Positions 1,110-60,045 of a stretch of DNA of 64,000 bases are shown in pieces (positions within the stretch are counted from its first letter, which is position 1; each line of letters opens with the position of its first letter). The stretch covers positions 1,024,001 to 1,088,000 of the forward strand of contig CM000435.1 of the NCBI GenBank assembly GCA_000165345.1, given 5' to 3'. The position numbers were made by a program, and so were the translations under genes. Under the pieces are notes generated by a model. That model searched no databases. It was not told where the DNA came from and saw only the letters and a list, made by a program, of their open reading frames with translations.

Positions 1110-4100
1110 TTATACGGAAATCGATGATGCAAGGGAGCTGAAAACGCTCTTAGGATTCCTAAGGAGGTTCTGGGGAGTATCAAATTCAAACACTCTACCT
1201 GATTCAAGAACAAGAATTTTGTCGTAATTGATGATTGTTTTAATCCTGTGGGCAATAGTTAATATAGTACACCCTTTAAACTCGGATTTGATAGTTTCCT
1301 GAATTAGAGAGTCGGTCTGGATGTCCACAAAGGAAGTTGCTTCATCAAGAAGAAGGATCCTGGATTTTCTAAGAATGGCTCTTGTTAGGCAAAATAGTTG
1401 CTTAATACCCACACTAAGCTGGGTTCCACCTCCTTCTAATTGGAAGTTTAACTTCCCTGGAAGGTTGTTAACGTAATCAAATACGTGCGCCCTTTTAAGA
1501 ACCTCATAAAGTTCTTCATCTGAATAACTTCCTTTTGGGTCTAAATTGAACCTTACTGTGCCAGTGAATATTACTGGGTCCTGGGGGACTATAGAAATAG
1601 ATTCTCTGAGCTTTAGAGGGGAAACCTTAGAGGTTTCTAAATCATCTATCAATATTGCACCAAAAGAAGGGTCGAATAGACGAAGTATTGCAGAAAATAG
1701 ACTGCTTTTTCCAGCCCCTGTCCTCCCAACTATTCCAATTCTTTCTCCTGGAGAAATCTTCAAACATATATTGCATAGAGAAGGATTAGGATTAGGGTAG
1801 AATGTCATATCCACATTCCTGAATTCAATCTTGCCTTGAGAAGGCCAGTCTTCTGGTACATTTATATTACTTTTCTCTTGATCTGATACAACTACTTGGT
1901 ACATTTCTGAATCTGTATATGTACGAATTCTTTCAAACCCAACCATATCTGCTTCAAATTCACCGACAGTAAAGATACTATACCTTAACCATCCAGGTAA
2001 AGCTACTGCAAATGACAAAATAGTACCAAGAATACCCGGATTTGATAGATTACAAGCTGAAAGAAGTACGCTGAAAATCCCTGTTACAACTAAAGTCATA
2101 CAACCAATTACCTCAAGACGGAGGTAAAGCCAAATATAGGCAATGTCCAAGTGATATCTGATATTATTTAAAGCAATTATTGCATTATCCATTTTTCTAA
2201 TAAGCATGTTCTCTGCTCCAAATGTGTGAATTGTTGCTAAGCCTGACATAGTTTCCATCAATTGAGACGTAATAGGAGCTGTTAAAGCTGCTGACTTTCT
2301 TTCACTTTGACGGATAATTGGCGGGTACTTTTTGGCCACACAATAAAAAGCGTAAAATATTGGTGGAATGAAGAAAAGGAACTGTGGTGTTATTACTCCA
2401 ACTGATACCAACATTGTTGCTGACATTAAAACTGTTACAGATGAATTGTTAAAGCTTGTTGGTAGGAGCTCATCTAAATGAACAAGATCTGAAGTAAACC
2501 TGTTTAATATTCTTCCAATTGGAGTGTTTTCAAAGAATGAAAGAGGAGCATGCTCAATATGAGAAAGAAGCTTATTGTGATAGATCTTAGACACTCCAAC
2601 ACCTCCTACTCGGAAGATGATTGTGGTTACAGTGCAAACAATTGGGAGTACAATACATGCTGTCAAGTATATGTTAAAGTAAGCTCTCCAGTTTTCTTCA
2701 TTAGCATTTTCTAGCCATATTCCAATGAAGAAAGTAATAAGTACGTATATTGCAACCAATAAAGATACAAAAATTAATAGTTTAAAGAGAGTGAGCTTTT
2801 CGTAAGAGAATATGTACTTCATATAAGTATCTAGAGATACCACTCCTTCTTCTTCCTCCTCTTCCTCTTCTTCATCAACTTTAAACCTTGAACTCTCTCC
2901 TTCCTCTTCTGTTATAGAGATTCCTTCTTGACTATAGTTTTGAGTTGAATTGCTTTTAATAAGACTTGTTAGAGTTAAAGACTCTCTTGAACTGTTATTT
3001 GAGCCAAGTTTTGCAATCTTTTGGTCATTCTTTGTTTGAGTTAAGTTTGAACCAAAAAGATTCTTATAGTGAGGAAACTTTAGCAATCCATAGGGATCTC
3101 CCAAATATAAGGGTTTCTTGCTGATGTCATCCAGAAGTAAAACCTTATCAACATGAACAACTAAATCTGCAAGATGAGTTGCCAAAATGACACATTTATC
3201 TCTAAGCAACCCAAGTATACAATTCTTGAAGATTCTAGCTGATACATTACTATCAACTGCACTAAGACAATCATCAAGTGCATAAATCTGAGACCTCTGG
3301 TAAACAGCTCTTGCCAGACTAATTCTTTGTCGTTGGCCTCCAGAAAGGTTATTAGAGCTACCACTTATCATAGTTTGGTCACCTTTTGGAAAGATCTTGA
3401 AATCTGCTACTAAACAACAAGCATCAACAACTTGAGCATACCATTCAGGGTCAAATGGGGCTCCAAAAAGAATATTTTCTCTAATTGTACCAGTAACAGC
3501 CCAAGCTAATTGAGGAACATAAGCCAATTTTCCACTAACCTGTCGAAGTCCTTTATAATGCTGAAGTTCATTAATTATGGAAAGCAATAGACCACTTTTT
3601 CCGCTGCCAACTGGTCCTAAAATAGCCATCATTTCCCCAGGATTTACTTCAAAAGAAAGGTCTTTCATTAAGAGAGCACCACTTGGCCATCTTAGCTCAA
3701 CTTTCTCGTATTTAACATTTCCTTTTATTGGCTCTGAAAGGTCTTGATCCTCAATTGGCATTGCACGAGAGACTTTAGAGCAAGATGAAGTATTCATAAG
3801 TGAATTAATATTGGATCTATCTTCAATGACTAGGAATTCGCTAATTCTTTCACATGATAGAATTAAATCCCTGAATAGAGCATAAGATTTGGGGAAGGAG
3901 GCAATAAACTCACTCACTGCATCGTACACAACGTATGCAAAGAATATATTGGCAGGGTCATTAACCTCACCCATATACCTTCTTACAATAATAGTAAAAA
4001 GAAGAGCGTGAAAAACAACAGCATGGCATGCTGCTGCAAATCCCCAACATGTACCTTGAGCCAGTAAACTTAAGATTTCGTTTTCTCTATGTGAATCAAT

Positions 4101-5291
4101 ATTTTTGATAAAATATCTTTCCCAAGAGTATGATTTAATAATCTTAATGTAATTAAGATACTCAGAAGTCAAAAGAATACGACGATCTCTGATTTCTGAA
4201 AATGGCTTTCTTAGATAGGCTCTGATATTTAGGAAGCTAATACTCCATGTAGCATGAGCAAACATAACTAATATTCCAACAATTCCTGAAATTCCAATAT
4301 TCATATAAAGCATTATAGCTGCAATAGTGACCGAACAAGCGCCATAGTAGAATTCGTGACTTGTATATAGCCTTCCAAACCTAGAAACATCGTTATTTAG
4401 AAGATTAACAACGTTTCCAGACATGCCAAAGGATCCCGTAGCTCCTTGCAGAGAAATTTCTGAAGCCACAGAAAGTCTGGCTTTGCTAGCTCTAGAAGAG
4501 AGCTCTGTGTTTGATTGAGGGCTTTCTGAAAATATATTCGAGTCCAAATTCAATAATTTCCTGTAAACAACCCCAGTAATCAAGGAGCGAATTTGCCTCC
4601 CTAATCTTGTAACAATCCTGGTTTCTTGCTGTCTTAAAACTGCATAAGCAATTATGAGGGTTGTCATTGCAAATATATAGGCAAAACCTTTGCAAGCAAT
4701 ACTTGAACTAAATCTCTCAGGAACAATCCCCAAAATAACTGCCCACCAAGGGATAGCTGAATCAGCAGAAGATTCAACTCTGGGAATGAGCTCAGAAGAT
4801 TGAATACATTCCAAGAGCTTTCTTAGTAGAAATATCTGAGTTAAATTACAGATATTTGAAAATATAACTAAAGCAAATATAATAAATATTTGCTTACTGT
4901 AACACTGGAATAATACCCTGGCCAGTGAAGGAAATTTAAGCTTTTTACTAGAAGCAGAACTATTTGTATTAGTGTTATTCCCATTTTTGTTTTCAAACAC
5001 TTTAGATTTTCCAAATCTTTCACATTCTGCCTTCCATTTATCTTCAAAGTTAGCAAGCGAGTAACTTGGATCGTTTTGCTCCGGTAAATGGTAATACTCA
5101 TCCAAAGATAGTATATGGTCATATGCAGAGTCAATTATTGGAGTAAACCAAGAAAAAGTAAATTTAGATAAGAAGCTAGCACTCTCTTCTGGAGTTATTC
5201 CACCAGTTTTTTTGTGTATAAACGGCTTTTCATCTTGTACTTGATCATCATTTTCTTTTTTCAAATTTCTATTAAAAATCCCTCCAAGCAT
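1110..5291 (-). CDS. ABC transporter of the ABCC/MRP family, a full transporter with TMD-NBD-TMD-NBD layout. The first real ATG is the 5th codon of the TTG-initiated tracked ORF.
   Basis: The tracked ORF is 1110..5303. Its first codon is TTG (caa on the plus strand), and the first ATG gives MLGGIFNRN. Two nucleotide-binding domains are present: Walker A GPVGSGKS and GRTGAGKSS, and ABC signatures LSGGQRQRISLARAV and LSVGIKQLFCLTRAI. The second signature is the MRP-type NBD2 form LSVGQRQLxCLARAL. Multiple hydrophobic TM blocks are present, plus a poly-Glu acidic linker EEEEEEEEE between the two halves. Confidence 0.85.
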   Translation of the reverse strand: MLGGIFNRNLKKENDDQVQDEKPFIHKKTGGITPEESASFLSKFTFSWFTPIIDSAYDHILSLDEYYHLPEQNDPSYSLANFEDKWKAECERFGKSKVFENKNGNNTNTNSSASSKKLKFPSLARVLFQCYSKQIFIIFALVIFSNICNLTQIFLLRKLLECIQSSELIPRVESSADSAIPWWAVILGIVPERFSSSIACKGFAYIFAMTTLIIAYAVLRQQETRIVTRLGRQIRSLITGVVYRKLLNLDSNIFSESPQSNTELSSRASKARLSVASEISLQGATGSFGMSGNVVNLLNNDVSRFGRLYTSHEFYYGACSVTIAAIMLYMNIGISGIVGILVMFAHATWSISFLNIRAYLRKPFSEIRDRRILLTSEYLNYIKIIKSYSWERYFIKNIDSHRENEILSLLAQGTCWGFAAACHAVVFHALLFTIIVRRYMGEVNDPANIFFAYVVYDAVSEFIASFPKSYALFRDLILSCERISEFLVIEDRSNINSLMNTSSCSKVSRAMPIEDQDLSEPIKGNVKYEKVELRWPSGALLMKDLSFEVNPGEMMAILGPVGSGKSGLLLSIINELQHYKGLRQVSGKLAYVPQLAWAVTGTIRENILFGAPFDPEWYAQVVDACCLVADFKIFPKGDQTMISGSSNNLSGGQRQRISLARAVYQRSQIYALDDCLSAVDSNVSARIFKNCILGLLRDKCVILATHLADLVVHVDKVLLLDDISKKPLYLGDPYGLLKFPHYKNLFGSNLTQTKNDQKIAKLGSNNSSRESLTLTSLIKSNSTQNYSQEGISITEEEGESSRFKVDEEEEEEEEEGVVSLDTYMKYIFSYEKLTLFKLLIFVSLLVAIYVLITFFIGIWLENANEENWRAYFNIYLTACIVLPIVCTVTTIIFRVGGVGVSKIYHNKLLSHIEHAPLSFFENTPIGRILNRFTSDLVHLDELLPTSFNNSSVTVLMSATMLVSVGVITPQFLFFIPPIFYAFYCVAKKYPPIIRQSERKSAALTAPITSQLMETMSGLATIHTFGAENMLIRKMDNAIIALNNIRYHLDIAYIWLYLRLEVIGCMTLVVTGIFSVLLSACNLSNPGILGTILSFAVALPGWLRYSIFTVGEFEADMVGFERIRTYTDSEMYQVVVSDQEKSNINVPEDWPSQGKIEFRNVDMTFYPNPNPSLCNICLKISPGERIGIVGRTGAGKSSLFSAILRLFDPSFGAILIDDLETSKVSPLKLRESISIVPQDPVIFTGTVRFNLDPKGSYSDEELYEVLKRAHVFDYVNNLPGKLNFQLEGGGTQLSVGIKQLFCLTRAILRKSRILLLDEATSFVDIQTDSLIQETIKSEFKGCTILTIAHRIKTIINYDKILVLESGRVFEFDTPQNLLRNPKSVFSSLASSISV

Positions 5292-49117: not shown

Positions 49118-50881
49118 ATGGAAACCTCCCAAGATGGAGACTACTGGGATGTGATTATTATTGGTACAGGGTTGATAGAATGTATTGTTGCTTCAGGCCT
49201 CTCAATGAGAGGATATTCGGTTTTAGTTTTAGAGTCAAATACCTCATATGGAGGCTTAAATAATACACTTAAACTCCCCACAGTTCATAATTGGATCTCA
49301 AACAACCCAGAACATTCAGAATCTCTATTTGAAACTTCTTCTTTCTTTGAAAAAGAGTGTGATCTTCAGTTATACTCATCACTAACTGAAGCAGAATCTC
49401 AATCTTTAAAGAATATATATGTGGATATGATGCCTAAAGTACTATTTTGTCGTGGCCATCTTGTAGAAATGATTTTATCGTGCAATATTTCTGGTTATCT
49501 AGAATTTCAAGGAATAAATGATATTTATTTTGCAGAAATTAAAGATAATGAGACATTTAGATTAACAAAAACACCATTTTCAAAAAAAGAGGTATTTTCC
49601 TCATCCGATTTGAATTTGGTAGAAAAGAGACAAGTTATGAGGTTGTACAGTGGAATTAGAGATATTTTAGAGATATCCAAAATTGAGGAAAAGGTTGATT
49701 TGGATTTGGTTTCTGATCCTTTTAGGTCCCCAGCATTAATTGTAAATTGTCAAAATAGTTCTAAAAAGGTTAATGAGAGCAATAATGACCAAACTAATCG
49801 TAACCGTAGTTTTGGTGGCAGTAGTAGAAATGCATGCATTCCTGAAGTAACTTCTTTCTCAGACTTTCAAGATTTCTGGAAAATCAATGACAGAGTGTTA
49901 AATTTAGTTAAACACAACGTAGTTTTTAGCAATTCACACCAAAACAATAATTTTGAATGGGAAAAGAACTTTACAAGGTATTTTAACCTTCTATTAAGTT
50001 CATTAAATCAACATGGATGTGTAGGAACTCCTTTTTTGTATCCAAATTATGGTACATGTGATCTACCTCAGTCATTTTCTAGACTTGCAGCAGTTAAAGG
50101 ATCTCTTCAAAGACTTGGGACAACCATTTCAACTATTCAAAAACAAGATGAAAAGGAAAAACTATGGAAAGTTCATATTAACTCAAGTAATTCAAAAGAA
50201 GTTATTAAGTGTAAGTCAATATTGGGGTCTTTAACAAATCTTTCAAAATACTTGAAGAATTCTGTAAATAATTTAATAGAAAACAAGGTTTTGTGTTATT
50301 TCATGATTTTAAATCGTCCATTAATCAAACCAAAAAACTCTCAGAATACTAAAAATCTTTGTCTCACAAGTATCCAAATTGGAGAAAACCAATTTGAGAA
50401 TAATATAGCTTATATTCTACAATGTGACTATAGTACAGGATGTTGCCCTCCTGGATATTATATTGTTTACATAAATAAGGTAATGGGAAAAGAAGAAACT
50501 ATTTTTCATGCAAGAAGTCAGGTCCAAAATGGAATTAACTCACTGTTATCTGCGAAAACAAATGATGAGACAAAGGTTTTATATAAAGCAAGTTATATTT
50601 ATATACAAAGGGTTGAGAATCCACAACAACTTGGAGACGGATTAATACTTTTGTCAGATCCATCTATTAACAACAATAGCTTCTTACTTCTGGATGAAGA
50701 TGTTGATAAAGCTTTACTAGCTCTTGATAAATCAATCAAGTTTCTAGATTCTCAACATAAGGATTATGTGACATTTAAGAACTTTTCAAATTCTAAAAAA
50801 GATCAAAAAGAAGAAAATTCAAAAATCCGAGATTCAAATAATCAATATTTTATAGAGAAGTTACAAAACATCTTAGACTAA
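49118..50881 (+). CDS. Rab GDP-dissociation inhibitor/Rab escort protein (GDI/CHM family). A long insert after the FAD/GDI N-terminal motif suggests the REP type.
   Basis: The stretch YWDVIIIGTGLIECIVASGLSMRGYSVLVLESNTSYGG matches the GDI/REP N-terminal motif [37 protein letters not shown]. The stretch MPKVLFCRGHLVEMILSCNISGYLEFQ matches GDI [26 protein letters not shown]. The protein is 587 aa, longer than a typical GDI. Confidence 0.65.
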   Translation: METSQDGDYWDVIIIGTGLIECIVASGLSMRGYSVLVLESNTSYGGLNNTLKLPTVHNWISNNPEHSESLFETSSFFEKECDLQLYSSLTEAESQSLKNIYVDMMPKVLFCRGHLVEMILSCNISGYLEFQGINDIYFAEIKDNETFRLTKTPFSKKEVFSSSDLNLVEKRQVMRLYSGIRDILEISKIEEKVDLDLVSDPFRSPALIVNCQNSSKKVNESNNDQTNRNRSFGGSSRNACIPEVTSFSDFQDFWKINDRVLNLVKHNVVFSNSHQNNNFEWEKNFTRYFNLLLSSLNQHGCVGTPFLYPNYGTCDLPQSFSRLAAVKGSLQRLGTTISTIQKQDEKEKLWKVHINSSNSKEVIKCKSILGSLTNLSKYLKNSVNNLIENKVLCYFMILNRPLIKPKNSQNTKNLCLTSIQIGENQFENNIAYILQCDYSTGCCPPGYYIVYINKVMGKEETIFHARSQVQNGINSLLSAKTNDETKVLYKASYIYIQRVENPQQLGDGLILLSDPSINNNSFLLLDEDVDKALLALDKSIKFLDSQHKDYVTFKNFSNSKKDQKEENSKIRDSNNQYFIEKLQNILD

Positions 50882-52261: not shown

Positions 52262-53481
52262 ATGGTAAGTTAGGAGTATTTTTAAGCAAGACGAGGAAGT
52301 TTCTAACTGGAGCTTGTTAATTCTTTAGGCACGTGGTCCAAAGAAGCATTTAAAGCGTGTGGCAGCTCCATCCAACTGGATGTTGGACAAATTGACAGGT
52401 GTATATGCACCTCGTCCATCAAGTGGTCCACATAAACTAAGAGAATGTATTCCATTAGCAATTTTACTCCGTAACAGATTAAAGTTTGCTTTAACATATA
52501 CTGAAGCAAAGTATATTGTAATGCAACGTCTTATCAAGGTTGATGGTAAGGTCAGAACTGATATCTGCTTCCCATTAGGTTTGATGGATGTTGTAAGCAT
52601 TGACCGTGTTGGAAAGAATATACGTATAATGTATGATACAAAGGGTAGATTCGTACCAGTCCAAATTGATTCTAAGGAGGCAGGATTCAAGCTATGCAAA
52701 GTAACTAAGGTTGCTCTTGGAGCAAAGGGTATTCCAACTGCCACAACAAATGACGCCCGTACTTTGAGATACATCCACCCAGATGTCAAGGCAAATGATA
52801 CTGTTAAAGTTGACTTGGCCACAGGAAAGGTAAGTTGATTTAGAAAAAATTGGTTCAAATAAGGCAATGAAAGGGGTGAGACGAGGATATTTTTGGTAAT
52901 TTTTATTATATAGTCGATTTGACGTGTTGGCTTTTCGGTGATGAACAACGACTTAAATGGGAATCTCTCTTACAAACAAATAATATGGTGAGATATGGTC
53001 TCGACTTTCTGTCATGATTGTCCTGATGTTCTGCTTAAAACACGTCATTTTTGTACTTTTAGAGTTAACAAAGATTCCAATATACCCTCATATATGATTA
53101 TTGCATATTTTATAGAAAGATTTGGTATTCTTATTTCTGATTTGCCTTGAAACCAAATATACTTTACTGAACAATATTTAATTTCCCCCTTTAATATAGG
53201 TAATTGACTTTGTCAAATGTGAAGTTGGTAACATGTGTATGGTCACTGGTGGTAGATCCCAAGGCCGTGTTGGTACCATTACTCACTTTGAGAGAAAGAT
53301 GGGTGCTCAGTGCATCGTCACTATTCGTGACCAAAAAGGTGCTACCTTTGCAACTTTAATGAAGAATATCTTCGTTATTGGAGAGGAGGGCAAACCCTTG
53401 GTCACTCTTCCAAAGGATAAAGGTATTAGATTATCAAATGTGGAGGACAGAAACTTAAGAATGAAGAAGCACAGGAACTAA
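52262..53481 (+). CDS. RPS4: 40S ribosomal protein S4 (eS4) with three exons. Exon 1 is the ATG codon alone at 52262..52264. Exon 2 is 52329..52829 and exon 3 is 53200..53481. Intron 1 is 52265..52328 (64 nt) and intron 2 is 52830..53199 (370 nt).
   Basis: The junction ATG|GTAAGT....TTCTTTAG|GCACGTGGTCCAAAGAAGCAT gives [44 protein letters not shown].... This is collinear with eS4 [41 protein letters not shown]. Exon 2 ends at ...DLATGK|GTAAGT. Exon 3 follows TTAATATAG| and reads [33 protein letters not shown]..., against eS4 [33 protein letters not shown]. All junctions are phase 0. The tracked ORFs 52359..52838 and 53233..53481 are fragments of this gene. Confidence 0.85.
52922..53045 (+). 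ncRNA. Candidate intron-encoded box C/D snoRNA inside RPS4 intron 2
   Basis: A C box GTGATGA lies at about 52938..52944 and a D box CTGA at about 53023..53026, about 80 nt apart. They are flanked by an inverted repeat ACGTGTT (52922..52928) and AACACGT (53039..53045) that could form the terminal stem. The 370-nt intron is unusually long compared with the other introns here, which are 50-80 nt. Confidence 0.3.
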
Positions 53482-53738
53482 TTAGAGACTGATTTCCAGG
53501 AACACATGCATTAGTTAAGATATTAGTCATTTTTTTCCTCACATAGTTTCATAATTGTTTCAATTTTATTTTAACACTTGCGGAATTGATTGTCTCCTTT
53601 TCTGTCTCTTATCTTGTTACTCAAGTGGAATTTATAACTCTTGTTGGAAATATCATCTAATAATATTAAAAATAAAATCTACAGTTAATTGAATACTAAT
53701 TCTAAATAATAATTACTTATGAAATCTAGTTATTTTAC

Positions 53739-58041: not shown

Positions 58042-59847
58042 TTATATTATGCATACTAGATTTCTAGGATTGGTCTCCCAACTTAAAATTGCCATAGTAA
58101 CGGAGGTAAAGGAGATTACGCTACCAATAAAAACCATAAATCCAATAAAGAGTTGTCCGGCTTTTGAAATTCTCTCCCTATTAAGACTGAAATAGAATAA
58201 AGGTGGATAAACAAATGCTAAAGGAACACATAATAGTCCTCCAGTAATTGTTACAAAGCTTCCTAACTCATCTTCAAAGTTATAGGCTAAAATCCCACAT
58301 AATAAAACCAGAGAATAAGAAATTAAAGCCCTCAGAGCTGAGTGGTGGAACTTTGATCTGGAATCTATGAGTCTGTCTTGGCTCAAGTCAACGATCTGGG
58401 CCCCATCGTCTTCTATTTCCTCTAGCCTTTCCAAGCTTTCCTTCTTTACTATTCTTGGAATACTTTTATTACTCTTATCACCGCCAATACCGCTACAAAT
58501 ATCAGTCTCCAAATTCTCAATAACTGCTCCTTTCTCTGATTTATTCTCTTTATTAGCCTTCATATTTTCCAATTTCAAACTGGAAGTTGAATTCTCCACA
58601 GGAGAGTAAACCACTTTGTTCCCAATGGAGGAATCCCAGCTTTCAGATATTGACGCAAGCTGAATAATCTTTGAAGTAGAAAACAGATTGTTCTGGAATG
58701 ATGATATATTCTCTGAATTCTTCAAAGAGGAGGAAGAAAAATTCAGCTGAGAAGCCCTTAAAATATTTGTACTCGTAGGATTTATCCGGATATTCTTTTT
58801 TGAAAGCTCACTTTCATGCTGGTCATCTGTGATCATGAAAAGTTCTTTCTTAATCTCTTTTCCGGTTACTTTCTCTTTATCAACTTTTGAAACAGGATTT
58901 GTCTCAATCTTCTCCAGATTCTCCATACTCTTTCTTCCTATAAAGGGAAGTTTTATCTGAAATATATATTTTTCTATAATCCCCATAGATGGGAAAAGCT
59001 GTAATGGGACGGAAAACATTATTGCAGATGAGTATATTATTAGAGAAATTATTTTGGCTTTTGGATTCAATATATTCTCAGTTACTGGAGAGGTAGTATC
59101 ATCACCAAATGAATAGTAAACAAAGCTTGCAAAGAAGTTTGAGATTACCCCAATCAATATCATTGTAAAGGTTAATATTGCTGGAAAAGCTTGGAGTAAA
59201 TACTCCGGAGTTGAATTCCTTATTGGAAGTATCAACGCTATTCCTTCATAATTAAATGCACTTGTTCCAAGTACTAACCCTGCTCCATATATGCTACCAA
59301 GCCTTGAAATTTCTGGTCTACCAATCGGATATCTTTCCAGATTTTGATAACCATAATAGATTATTACTCCAAGTACTGAGAACACTGAAATATTTGCTAA
59401 TACACTGAGAAATCCCAGATTTTCAATATCTCTCAAAAAGATAAAGGGTAAGTAAATTACCATCTGGAAACAAATCAGCTTAAGTATTGGAATTTCTAAC
59501 TGGCAACTTGAAATGGAATATATTATTTCTTGAATATTATGAGATACAAAAATCATATAAACTGTAGAAAAGCCTAGCTGAGAAAAGAATATTGAAGTAT
59601 CAACCAAAATTAATCCAGATCTTCCCCAAACTCTCTCTGCTAACTCTCCTAAGGTTTCTTTGCCTTGACAACACTTAACCAAAAATCTGATTGAAATGAT
59701 AGCCAAGAAACAAACCAAAGTTGATAATATATTTCCACTAATAATACCTGAAACTCTAAACGTTCCTGGCAAAAAGATAATCCCAGTCCCAATAAAAGAC
59801 TTGATCAGTGTGACCATTATCCTCAAGCACGGCCTCACTCTTTTCAT
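58042..59847 (-). CDS. Amino-acid transporter of the AAAP/Aa_trans (SLC32/36/38-like) family, a multi-pass membrane protein
   Basis: The N-terminal TM1 motif LIKSFIGTGIIFLPGTF is diagnostic of the Aa_trans family, which has KxFxGxGxLxLP. About 10 hydrophobic segments are present, with a long hydrophilic loop of about 170 aa. The tracked ORF starts with a TTG at 59871, and the first ATG gives MKRVRPCLRIMVTL. A TTTTAG acceptor-like sequence lies immediately upstream, so a short 5' exon cannot be excluded. Confidence 0.6.
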   Translation of the reverse strand: MKRVRPCLRIMVTLIKSFIGTGIIFLPGTFRVSGIISGNILSTLVCFLAIISIRFLVKCCQGKETLGELAERVWGRSGLILVDTSIFFSQLGFSTVYMIFVSHNIQEIIYSISSCQLEIPILKLICFQMVIYLPFIFLRDIENLGFLSVLANISVFSVLGVIIYYGYQNLERYPIGRPEISRLGSIYGAGLVLGTSAFNYEGIALILPIRNSTPEYLLQAFPAILTFTMILIGVISNFFASFVYYSFGDDTTSPVTENILNPKAKIISLIIYSSAIMFSVPLQLFPSMGIIEKYIFQIKLPFIGRKSMENLEKIETNPVSKVDKEKVTGKEIKKELFMITDDQHESELSKKNIRINPTSTNILRASQLNFSSSSLKNSENISSFQNNLFSTSKIIQLASISESWDSSIGNKVVYSPVENSTSSLKLENMKANKENKSEKGAVIENLETDICSGIGGDKSNKSIPRIVKKESLERLEEIEDDGAQIVDLSQDRLIDSRSKFHHSALRALISYSLVLLCGILAYNFEDELGSFVTITGGLLCVPLAFVYPPLFYFSLNRERISKAGQLFIGFMVFIGSVISFTSVTMAILSWETNPRNLVCII

Positions 59848-60045
59848 TATTAATGGCTCTAAAATTCCCAAGTTATAAAAGAATATTGTACAATTATCTT
59901 TCTATGAGCCAGTTACACTGTATATCATAACTCCTTCTTGTATTTTTCTCTTTTATTTTTCCTTTTTTCTCTTCTTCCAGATAATTTCTCTTTTCTCTTT
60001 ATTAAATGCTTTTACATGCAAAAATGCACCAAATTTTGAGATTAT

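Follow-up and report, generated by a model that had tools for sequence, protein, structure and literature searches.

The second intron of RPS4 in Cryptosporidium most probably encodes a box C/D snoRNA on its sense strand, a reading to which we assign a probability of about 0.85. The intron carries C and D boxes conserved throughout the genus, an antisense element complementary to LSU rRNA and in register with an internal D′ box, and an outer stem whose arms covary. We infer that this RNA is expressed, processed, bound by protein and active in methylation. The snoRNA would be transcribed within the RPS4 pre-mRNA, where an external stem of 8 bp would join the C and D boxes for snoRNP assembly, and it would be trimmed from the spliced or debranched intron in the manner of known intronic snoRNAs. 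Its D′-side guide would then pair with the conserved LSU rRNA sequence GAGAUUCCCA, allowing fibrillarin to 2′-O-methylate the second A of GAGA, the presumed equivalent of human 28S Am3809. The features of the locus are listed in Table 1, with positions given in the window (the whole stretch of 64,000 nt that was analysed).

Table 1. Position of the predicted snoRNA and its elements within the host gene
Feature	Position in window	Strand	Basis or remark
Host gene eS4/RPS4 (about cgd7_4760)	52262..53481	+	Spliced translation identical to P0122
RPS4 exons	52262-52264, 52329-52829, 53200-53481	+	
RPS4 intron 2, 370 nt, host of the predicted snoRNA	52830..53199	+	GTAAGT at 5′ end, TAG at 3′ end
External stem, 5′ arm GACGUGUU	52921..52928	+	Pairs with 53039-46; RNAfold and compensatory changes
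Conserved core, predicted snoRNA of about 95-107 nt	52929..53035	+	Cross-species identity
C box GUGAUGA	52938..52944	+	UGAUGA invariant in 8 species
D′ antisense element UGGGAAUCUC	52958..52967	+	U at 52964 is guide position 5
D′ box, degenerate, CUUA	52969..52972	+	Aligned with CUGA of SNORD79 consensus
Putative C′ box UGGUGA	52986..52991	+	Read from orthologous sequences
D-side element between C′ and D boxes	52993..53022	+	
D box CUGA	53023..53026	+	Invariant in 8 species
External stem, 3′ arm AACACGUC	53039..53046	+	RNAfold and compensatory changes

A conserved element in RPS4 intron 2

Removal of both introns yields a 261-aa eS4/RPS4 protein, identical to P0122 of C. parvum and C. hominis and differing at 1 residue from its C. 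meleagridis counterpart. The upstream neighbour is the Rab GDI gene (49118-50881), which is cgd7_4740, and the downstream neighbour is an amino-acid transporter gene (58042-59871), given as cgd7_4800 in a transcriptome paper; the host gene is therefore about cgd7_4760, on chromosome 7 of C. parvum/C. hominis. The first intron (52265-52328, 64 nt) starts right after the ATG, at a position common to 8 of 8 species. The old annotation of C. hominis TU502 splits RPS4 into two proteins, one of 82 aa and the other of 152 aa (P0121 and P0123 of the protein cluster), the gene model apparently having been broken by the introns.

All the motifs on which a sequence-only reading had based its snoRNA candidate are present on the + strand, namely the 370-nt intron, GTGATGA, CTGA and ACGTGTT (52922-52928), and the distance between the C and D boxes, which it had put at about 80 nt, is 78 nt. 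On their own, such motifs are weak evidence, and the case rests on conservation and on the guide. A C box and a D box at 55-115 nt, flanked by a 7-bp inverted repeat, occurred in 15.5% of simulated 64-kb sequences. On both strands of the real 64-kb window, the element at 52922-53045 is the sole candidate of this kind. Other C/D candidates with rRNA-complementary guides were looked for in the window, and none of them has a C box. One further complement of rRNA, ACTAATTAGA (within 53479-53492), overlaps the RPS4 stop codon; it is perfectly complementary over 10 nt to the LSU sequence UCUAAUUAGU, with a CTGA 2 nt further on, and was taken as chance because no C box lies at a snoRNA distance.

The window was compared with the orthologous RPS4 genes of C. 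meleagridis, C. canis, C. muris, C. ubiquitum, C. bovis, C. ryanae and chipmunk genotype I. An intron of 177-391 nt interrupts the same codon in all eight species, and in each of the seven others this intron carries the element. Segments of the core are 83-100% identical to those of C. meleagridis, chipmunk genotype I, C. ubiquitum and C. canis, with the exception of the D′-C′ loop, which is 55-73% identical in comparisons of the window with closer species; the intron flanks range from 31 to 88%. All 8 species have retained the C box, the D box and the guide decamer, with a single G.U-compatible A to G change in C. muris, and the two boxes picked out by the sequence-only reading thus hold in every orthologous intron. 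Even C. muris, in which the remainder of the intron is unalignable, retains the C and D boxes, the guide and, as its C′ box, a perfect UGAUGA.

The internal boxes are more variable. In most species, the D′ box does not have the G of CUGA; it reads CCUA in C. bovis and CGGA in C. muris, and only its C1 and A4 are invariant in the 8 species. The putative C′ box is GAAUGA in C. bovis and GGAUGA in C. ryanae. Degenerate internal boxes are common among box C/D snoRNAs.

These comparisons also bear on the alternative that short motifs came together by chance in an AT-rich intron. The frequency of the motifs in simulated sequences and an Rfam match that stays below the gathering score speak for it. 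Chance would not predict a sharply bounded island of conservation in 8 species, including one whose intron is otherwise unalignable, and the in-register match between guide and rRNA counts against it as well. We leave this explanation next to no probability, since it is effectively refuted by the cross-species data. A coding exon was also considered for the conserved segment and rejected: one reverse frame is open across 107 nt, but a pattern of invariant blocks separated by a variable loop is not that of codons.

No homologous element, SNORD79-like guide or C/D match was found at the RPS4 loci of Neospora caninum, Eimeria tenella and Cardiosporidium cionae. Among the taxa tested, the hosting of this predicted snoRNA by RPS4 is specific to Cryptosporidium.

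The 3′ part of intron 2 holds a hairpin, UUUGGU...ACCAAA (53107-53175), which is without a C box and gives a weak SNORD59-like Rfam match (15.6 bits, E=3.1). The 3′ flank of the intron around it (53047-53190) shows 88% identity to C. meleagridis, against 36-53% to C. ubiquitum and C. canis. This hairpin is probably not a second snoRNA.

The D′ guide, its predicted target and the D-side element

The guide UGGGAAUCUC ends one base upstream of the D′ box. Its target was sought by an anchored scan under the box C/D rule, by which guide position 5, counted upstream from the box, faces the target nucleotide. In 8 of 8 eukaryotic LSU rRNAs, the decamer GAG[A]UUCCCA makes 10 Watson-Crick pairs with the guide; these rRNAs are metagenomic proxies, the Cryptosporidium target being assumed from universal conservation. 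The duplex is only 10 bp long; it begins at guide position 2, which places position 5 opposite the A of GAG[A]UUCCCA. Complementarity of a guide to rRNA is thus found in the correct register upstream of D′, and the box C/D reading, first made from motifs, is supported by conservation, by the guide and by its rRNA target.

No rRNA genes were found within the 64-kb window. The LSU sequence around the target site was used as a metagenome query. The 18-mer CGAGATTCCCACTGTCCC was found in more than 120 metagenome contigs, and all 8 of the long ones that were checked proved to be complete eukaryotic LSU rRNAs. One eukaryotic metagenome contig, Ga0209406_1003833 (positions 2810-4181 of locus L085), carries an rDNA spacer with the genes for 5S rRNA, the U1, U2, U4 and U5 snRNAs and the U3 snoRNA in a row.

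Changes of the guide within the genus fit the predicted LSU duplex. With the U to G substitution of C. meleagridis at guide position 1, this duplex grows to 11 bp; the A to G substitution of C. muris gives a G.U pair with the target. A search for accessory pairing within +/-250 nt of the LSU target gave nothing convincing.

We take the target adenosine to be the equivalent of human 28S Am3809, by the shared guide and by the 28S sequence. This LSU adenosine is not known to be methylated in yeast. Because its guide and register are identical to those of SNORD79, which guides human 28S:Am3809 (PMC9696202), the RNA predicted in Cryptosporidium would be expected to guide methylation at the Am3809-equivalent A.

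The genuine nature of the C/D RNA could be granted while methylation of the LSU adenosine is not its main or only role. It would then act as a guide for lineage-specific rRNA, snRNA, tRNA or mRNA, or as a pre-rRNA chaperone. Such a role is suggested by the 30-nt D-side element, whose conservation within the C. parvum clade equals that of the D′ guide (97% identity in three close species, 83% in C. canis). Anchored scans of the conserved cores of SSU, 5.8S and LSU rRNA gave no in-register complement of this element; a partial match (10 Watson-Crick pairs, 2 G.U pairs and 1 mismatch) in the variable 3′ region of the LSU, present in 2 of the 8 LSUs, is a weak lead. Against this possibility, C. 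bovis/ryanae and C. muris have different sequences in place of the element, and in C. canis its guide position 5 changes from U to A; the sites that vary are guide positions 5, 12 and 17. Of the two guides, only the one upstream of D′ is common to the whole genus. We therefore regard a C/D RNA whose main business lies elsewhere than at the LSU adenosine as improbable.

An additional function, in which the D-side element would guide a lineage-specific rRNA segment or a non-rRNA target, is doubtful and is put forward tentatively. If this were true, guide turnover within one intronic snoRNA would track Cryptosporidium speciation, and the snoRNA would be the selective reason for which an unusually long intron persists in an intron-poor genome.

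In C. muris, the D-box guide UCACAGACU (about 3636-3680 of locus L004) makes 8 Watson-Crick pairs and 1 G.U pair with the universally conserved SSU sequence AACAG[G]UCUGUGA. The site is a single nucleotide away from that of snR56/U25 (yeast Gm1428), and Rfam gives a weak match to snR56 (18.1 bits). This SSU target is at most a weak lead and was rejected as a chance-level match, 6 of 60 shuffled guides doing equally well. The D-box match of C. bovis/ryanae, which has a G.U pair at the target position, was rejected too.

The external stem

The box C/D snoRNA proposed here would be closed by a helix lying outside its boxes. The sequence-only reading had interpreted a 7-bp inverted repeat around the boxes as the terminal stem. 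The pairing is real, extends to 8 bp (GACGTGTT at 52921-28 with AACACGTC at 53039-46) and covaries; its arms lie 9 and 12 nt beyond the C and D boxes, so that it is an external and not a canonical terminal stem. No canonical stem of 4-5 bp adjoins the boxes, where just 2 pairs are followed by U-U mismatches and 3 further pairs. The spacer between stem and boxes (GGCUUUUCG / UGUUCUGCU) does not vary within the C. parvum clade.

The stem was predicted by RNAfold for 5 of the 6 sequences folded (the window, C. ubiquitum, C. canis, C. ryanae and C. muris). An A-U pair is replaced by G-C in C. meleagridis and chipmunk genotype I, and C. ubiquitum shows a further change from C-G to U-A. In C. canis, C. 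bovis/ryanae and C. muris, the arms are entirely different yet complementary. With the arms of the distant species registered by hand, which biases the pairing count, 91% of the cells are paired, double changes occur in 8 of 8 pairs and 0 of 500 shuffles are as good; in the C. parvum clade itself, the changes are clear-cut. As judged from these alignments, the outer stem covaries and stays paired while its sequence changes between species, each of which has a helix of 7-8 bp. An internal helix between the two halves of the RNA (GACU/GGUC), also suggested by RNAfold, was discarded, having no covariation support.

Covariation of the outer stem would also favour a conserved cis-acting structure serving the splicing or autoregulation of RPS4, rather than a trans-acting snoRNA. 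Intron 2 is unusually long for a compact genome, and ribosomal protein genes are often autoregulated via structured introns, both of which count for this explanation. A purely structural element would not, however, need an invariant RUGAUGA and CUGA, nor a 10-nt single-stranded stretch that exactly repeats a known rRNA antisense element and is in register with D′. In addition, RNAalifold indicates almost no conserved internal structure (-1.46 kcal/mol), which argues against a cis-acting structure; little internal structure is expected for a C/D snoRNA. The cis-acting explanation thus appears very unlikely, and we retain the box C/D snoRNA.

Comparison with known box C/D snoRNAs

The catalogued C/D snoRNAs of C. 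parvum are U3, SNORD36 (cgd7_5107), SNORD96 (cgd5_3935), cgd2_3583, cgd6_3219 and cgd7_1545 (PMC9465071, PMC12246861). Li et al. 2022 (PMC9465071) identified three C/D snoRNAs via Rfam and added three more, and reported 23 intronic small RNAs, 19 of them without assigned function. A 2025 review (PMC12246861) counts five C/D snoRNA genes and states that no C/D or H/ACA snoRNA of Cryptosporidium has a confirmed modification target. The RNA predicted in RPS4 comes from the same organism and would belong to the same class; unlike it, the catalogued snoRNAs come without rRNA targets. The published C. parvum C/D list has none near cgd7_4760, and no existing annotation at cgd7_476x was found in the literature, outside the coordinate tables of Li et al. 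2022. The RPS4 snoRNA may already be among the 19 unclassified intronic ncRNAs (CryptoDB).

The RPS4 intron RNA is almost certainly a genuine but ordinary intron-hosted snoRNA, conserved in the genus and endowed with a specific predicted LSU target. Its value lies mainly in annotation, the understanding of snoRNA biology being unchanged: the five or six catalogued C. parvum C/D snoRNAs would gain one more, with a specific and testable target. Annotation at Rfam gathering thresholds misses divergent protist snoRNAs, which can be found by guide identity combined with cross-species conservation of introns. The locus also lends support to the proposal by Li et al. 2022 that the survival of introns in a compact genome is explained in part by the small RNAs embedded in them.

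In another apicomplexan, P. falciparum, half of the C/D snoRNAs of the PFS series are intronic and several lie in ribosomal-protein genes (Mishra et al. 2009, PMC2656528). Their D′ boxes are degenerate (ATGA, CCGA, TTGA) and their guides are 8-15 nt long (PMC2656528). The RNA predicted in Cryptosporidium resembles them as an apicomplexan C/D snoRNA with a degenerate D′ box. PFS15/16 target an LSU C eleven nt downstream of the A proposed here (yeast Cm2337). Unlike the RNA described here, none of the 18 published PFS snoRNAs targets this A, and none of the 18 lies in RPS4.

The predicted snoRNA lies 173 nt from the 3′ splice site in the window. A distance of about 70 nt is favoured for splicing-coupled snoRNA assembly, and intronic snoRNAs far from the 3′ splice site tend to need external stems for assembly. 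Vertebrate and yeast intronic snoRNAs that need external stems for their processing have reportedly been described by Darzacq and Kiss and by Hirose and Steitz. The RPS4 element is like these in having a covarying helix outside the predicted mature RNA and a distant 3′ splice site. It differs from them in C. muris, where the stem is present although no more than about 64 nt would separate the snoRNA from the 3′ splice site.

The closest likeness is to SNORD79. At gathering thresholds, Rfam gave no matches in the whole window. When the RPS4 intron was scanned at permissive thresholds (431 nt), SNORD79 (RF00152) was the best match, at 25.8 bits and E=0.052, a value that holds only for the 431-nt search space, and the score is below the SNORD79 gathering score of 47. 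Support from a covariance model, which the sequence-only reading had looked to for its candidate, was thus obtained in part: the best-ranking family is a C/D snoRNA, but its score does not reach the gathering level. SNORD79 was also matched in the C. bovis intron (18.7 bits), and the SNORD79 scan of the C. muris intron gave no match. In the window, cmscan placed the D box and 3′ stem of the model in the C′ region, at 52989-98, which is 25 nt short of the real D box. The segment 52957-52970, made up of the antisense element AUGGGAAUCUCU and the first half of D′, is identical at 14 of 14 nt to the SNORD79 consensus AUGGGAAUCUCUCU, and this match covers the most conserved part of the family.

The Cryptosporidium RNA shares with SNORD79 the antisense element, a D′ box at the same offset and, by the fifth-nucleotide rule, the same predicted LSU adenosine, and both are intron-encoded. 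It differs in its D′ box, CUUA instead of CUGA, in a D′-to-D spacing of about 50 nt versus about 30, and in a conserved D-side element that is absent from SNORD79. Its stem is external, in contrast to the box-adjacent terminal stem of the 83-nt Rfam model, and its host is RPS4 rather than GAS5, the non-coding gene that hosts SNORD79. With a score below gathering and a differing architecture, it is not a SNORD79 member by the Rfam criterion, and we therefore describe it as a probable functional counterpart and distant homologue of SNORD79.
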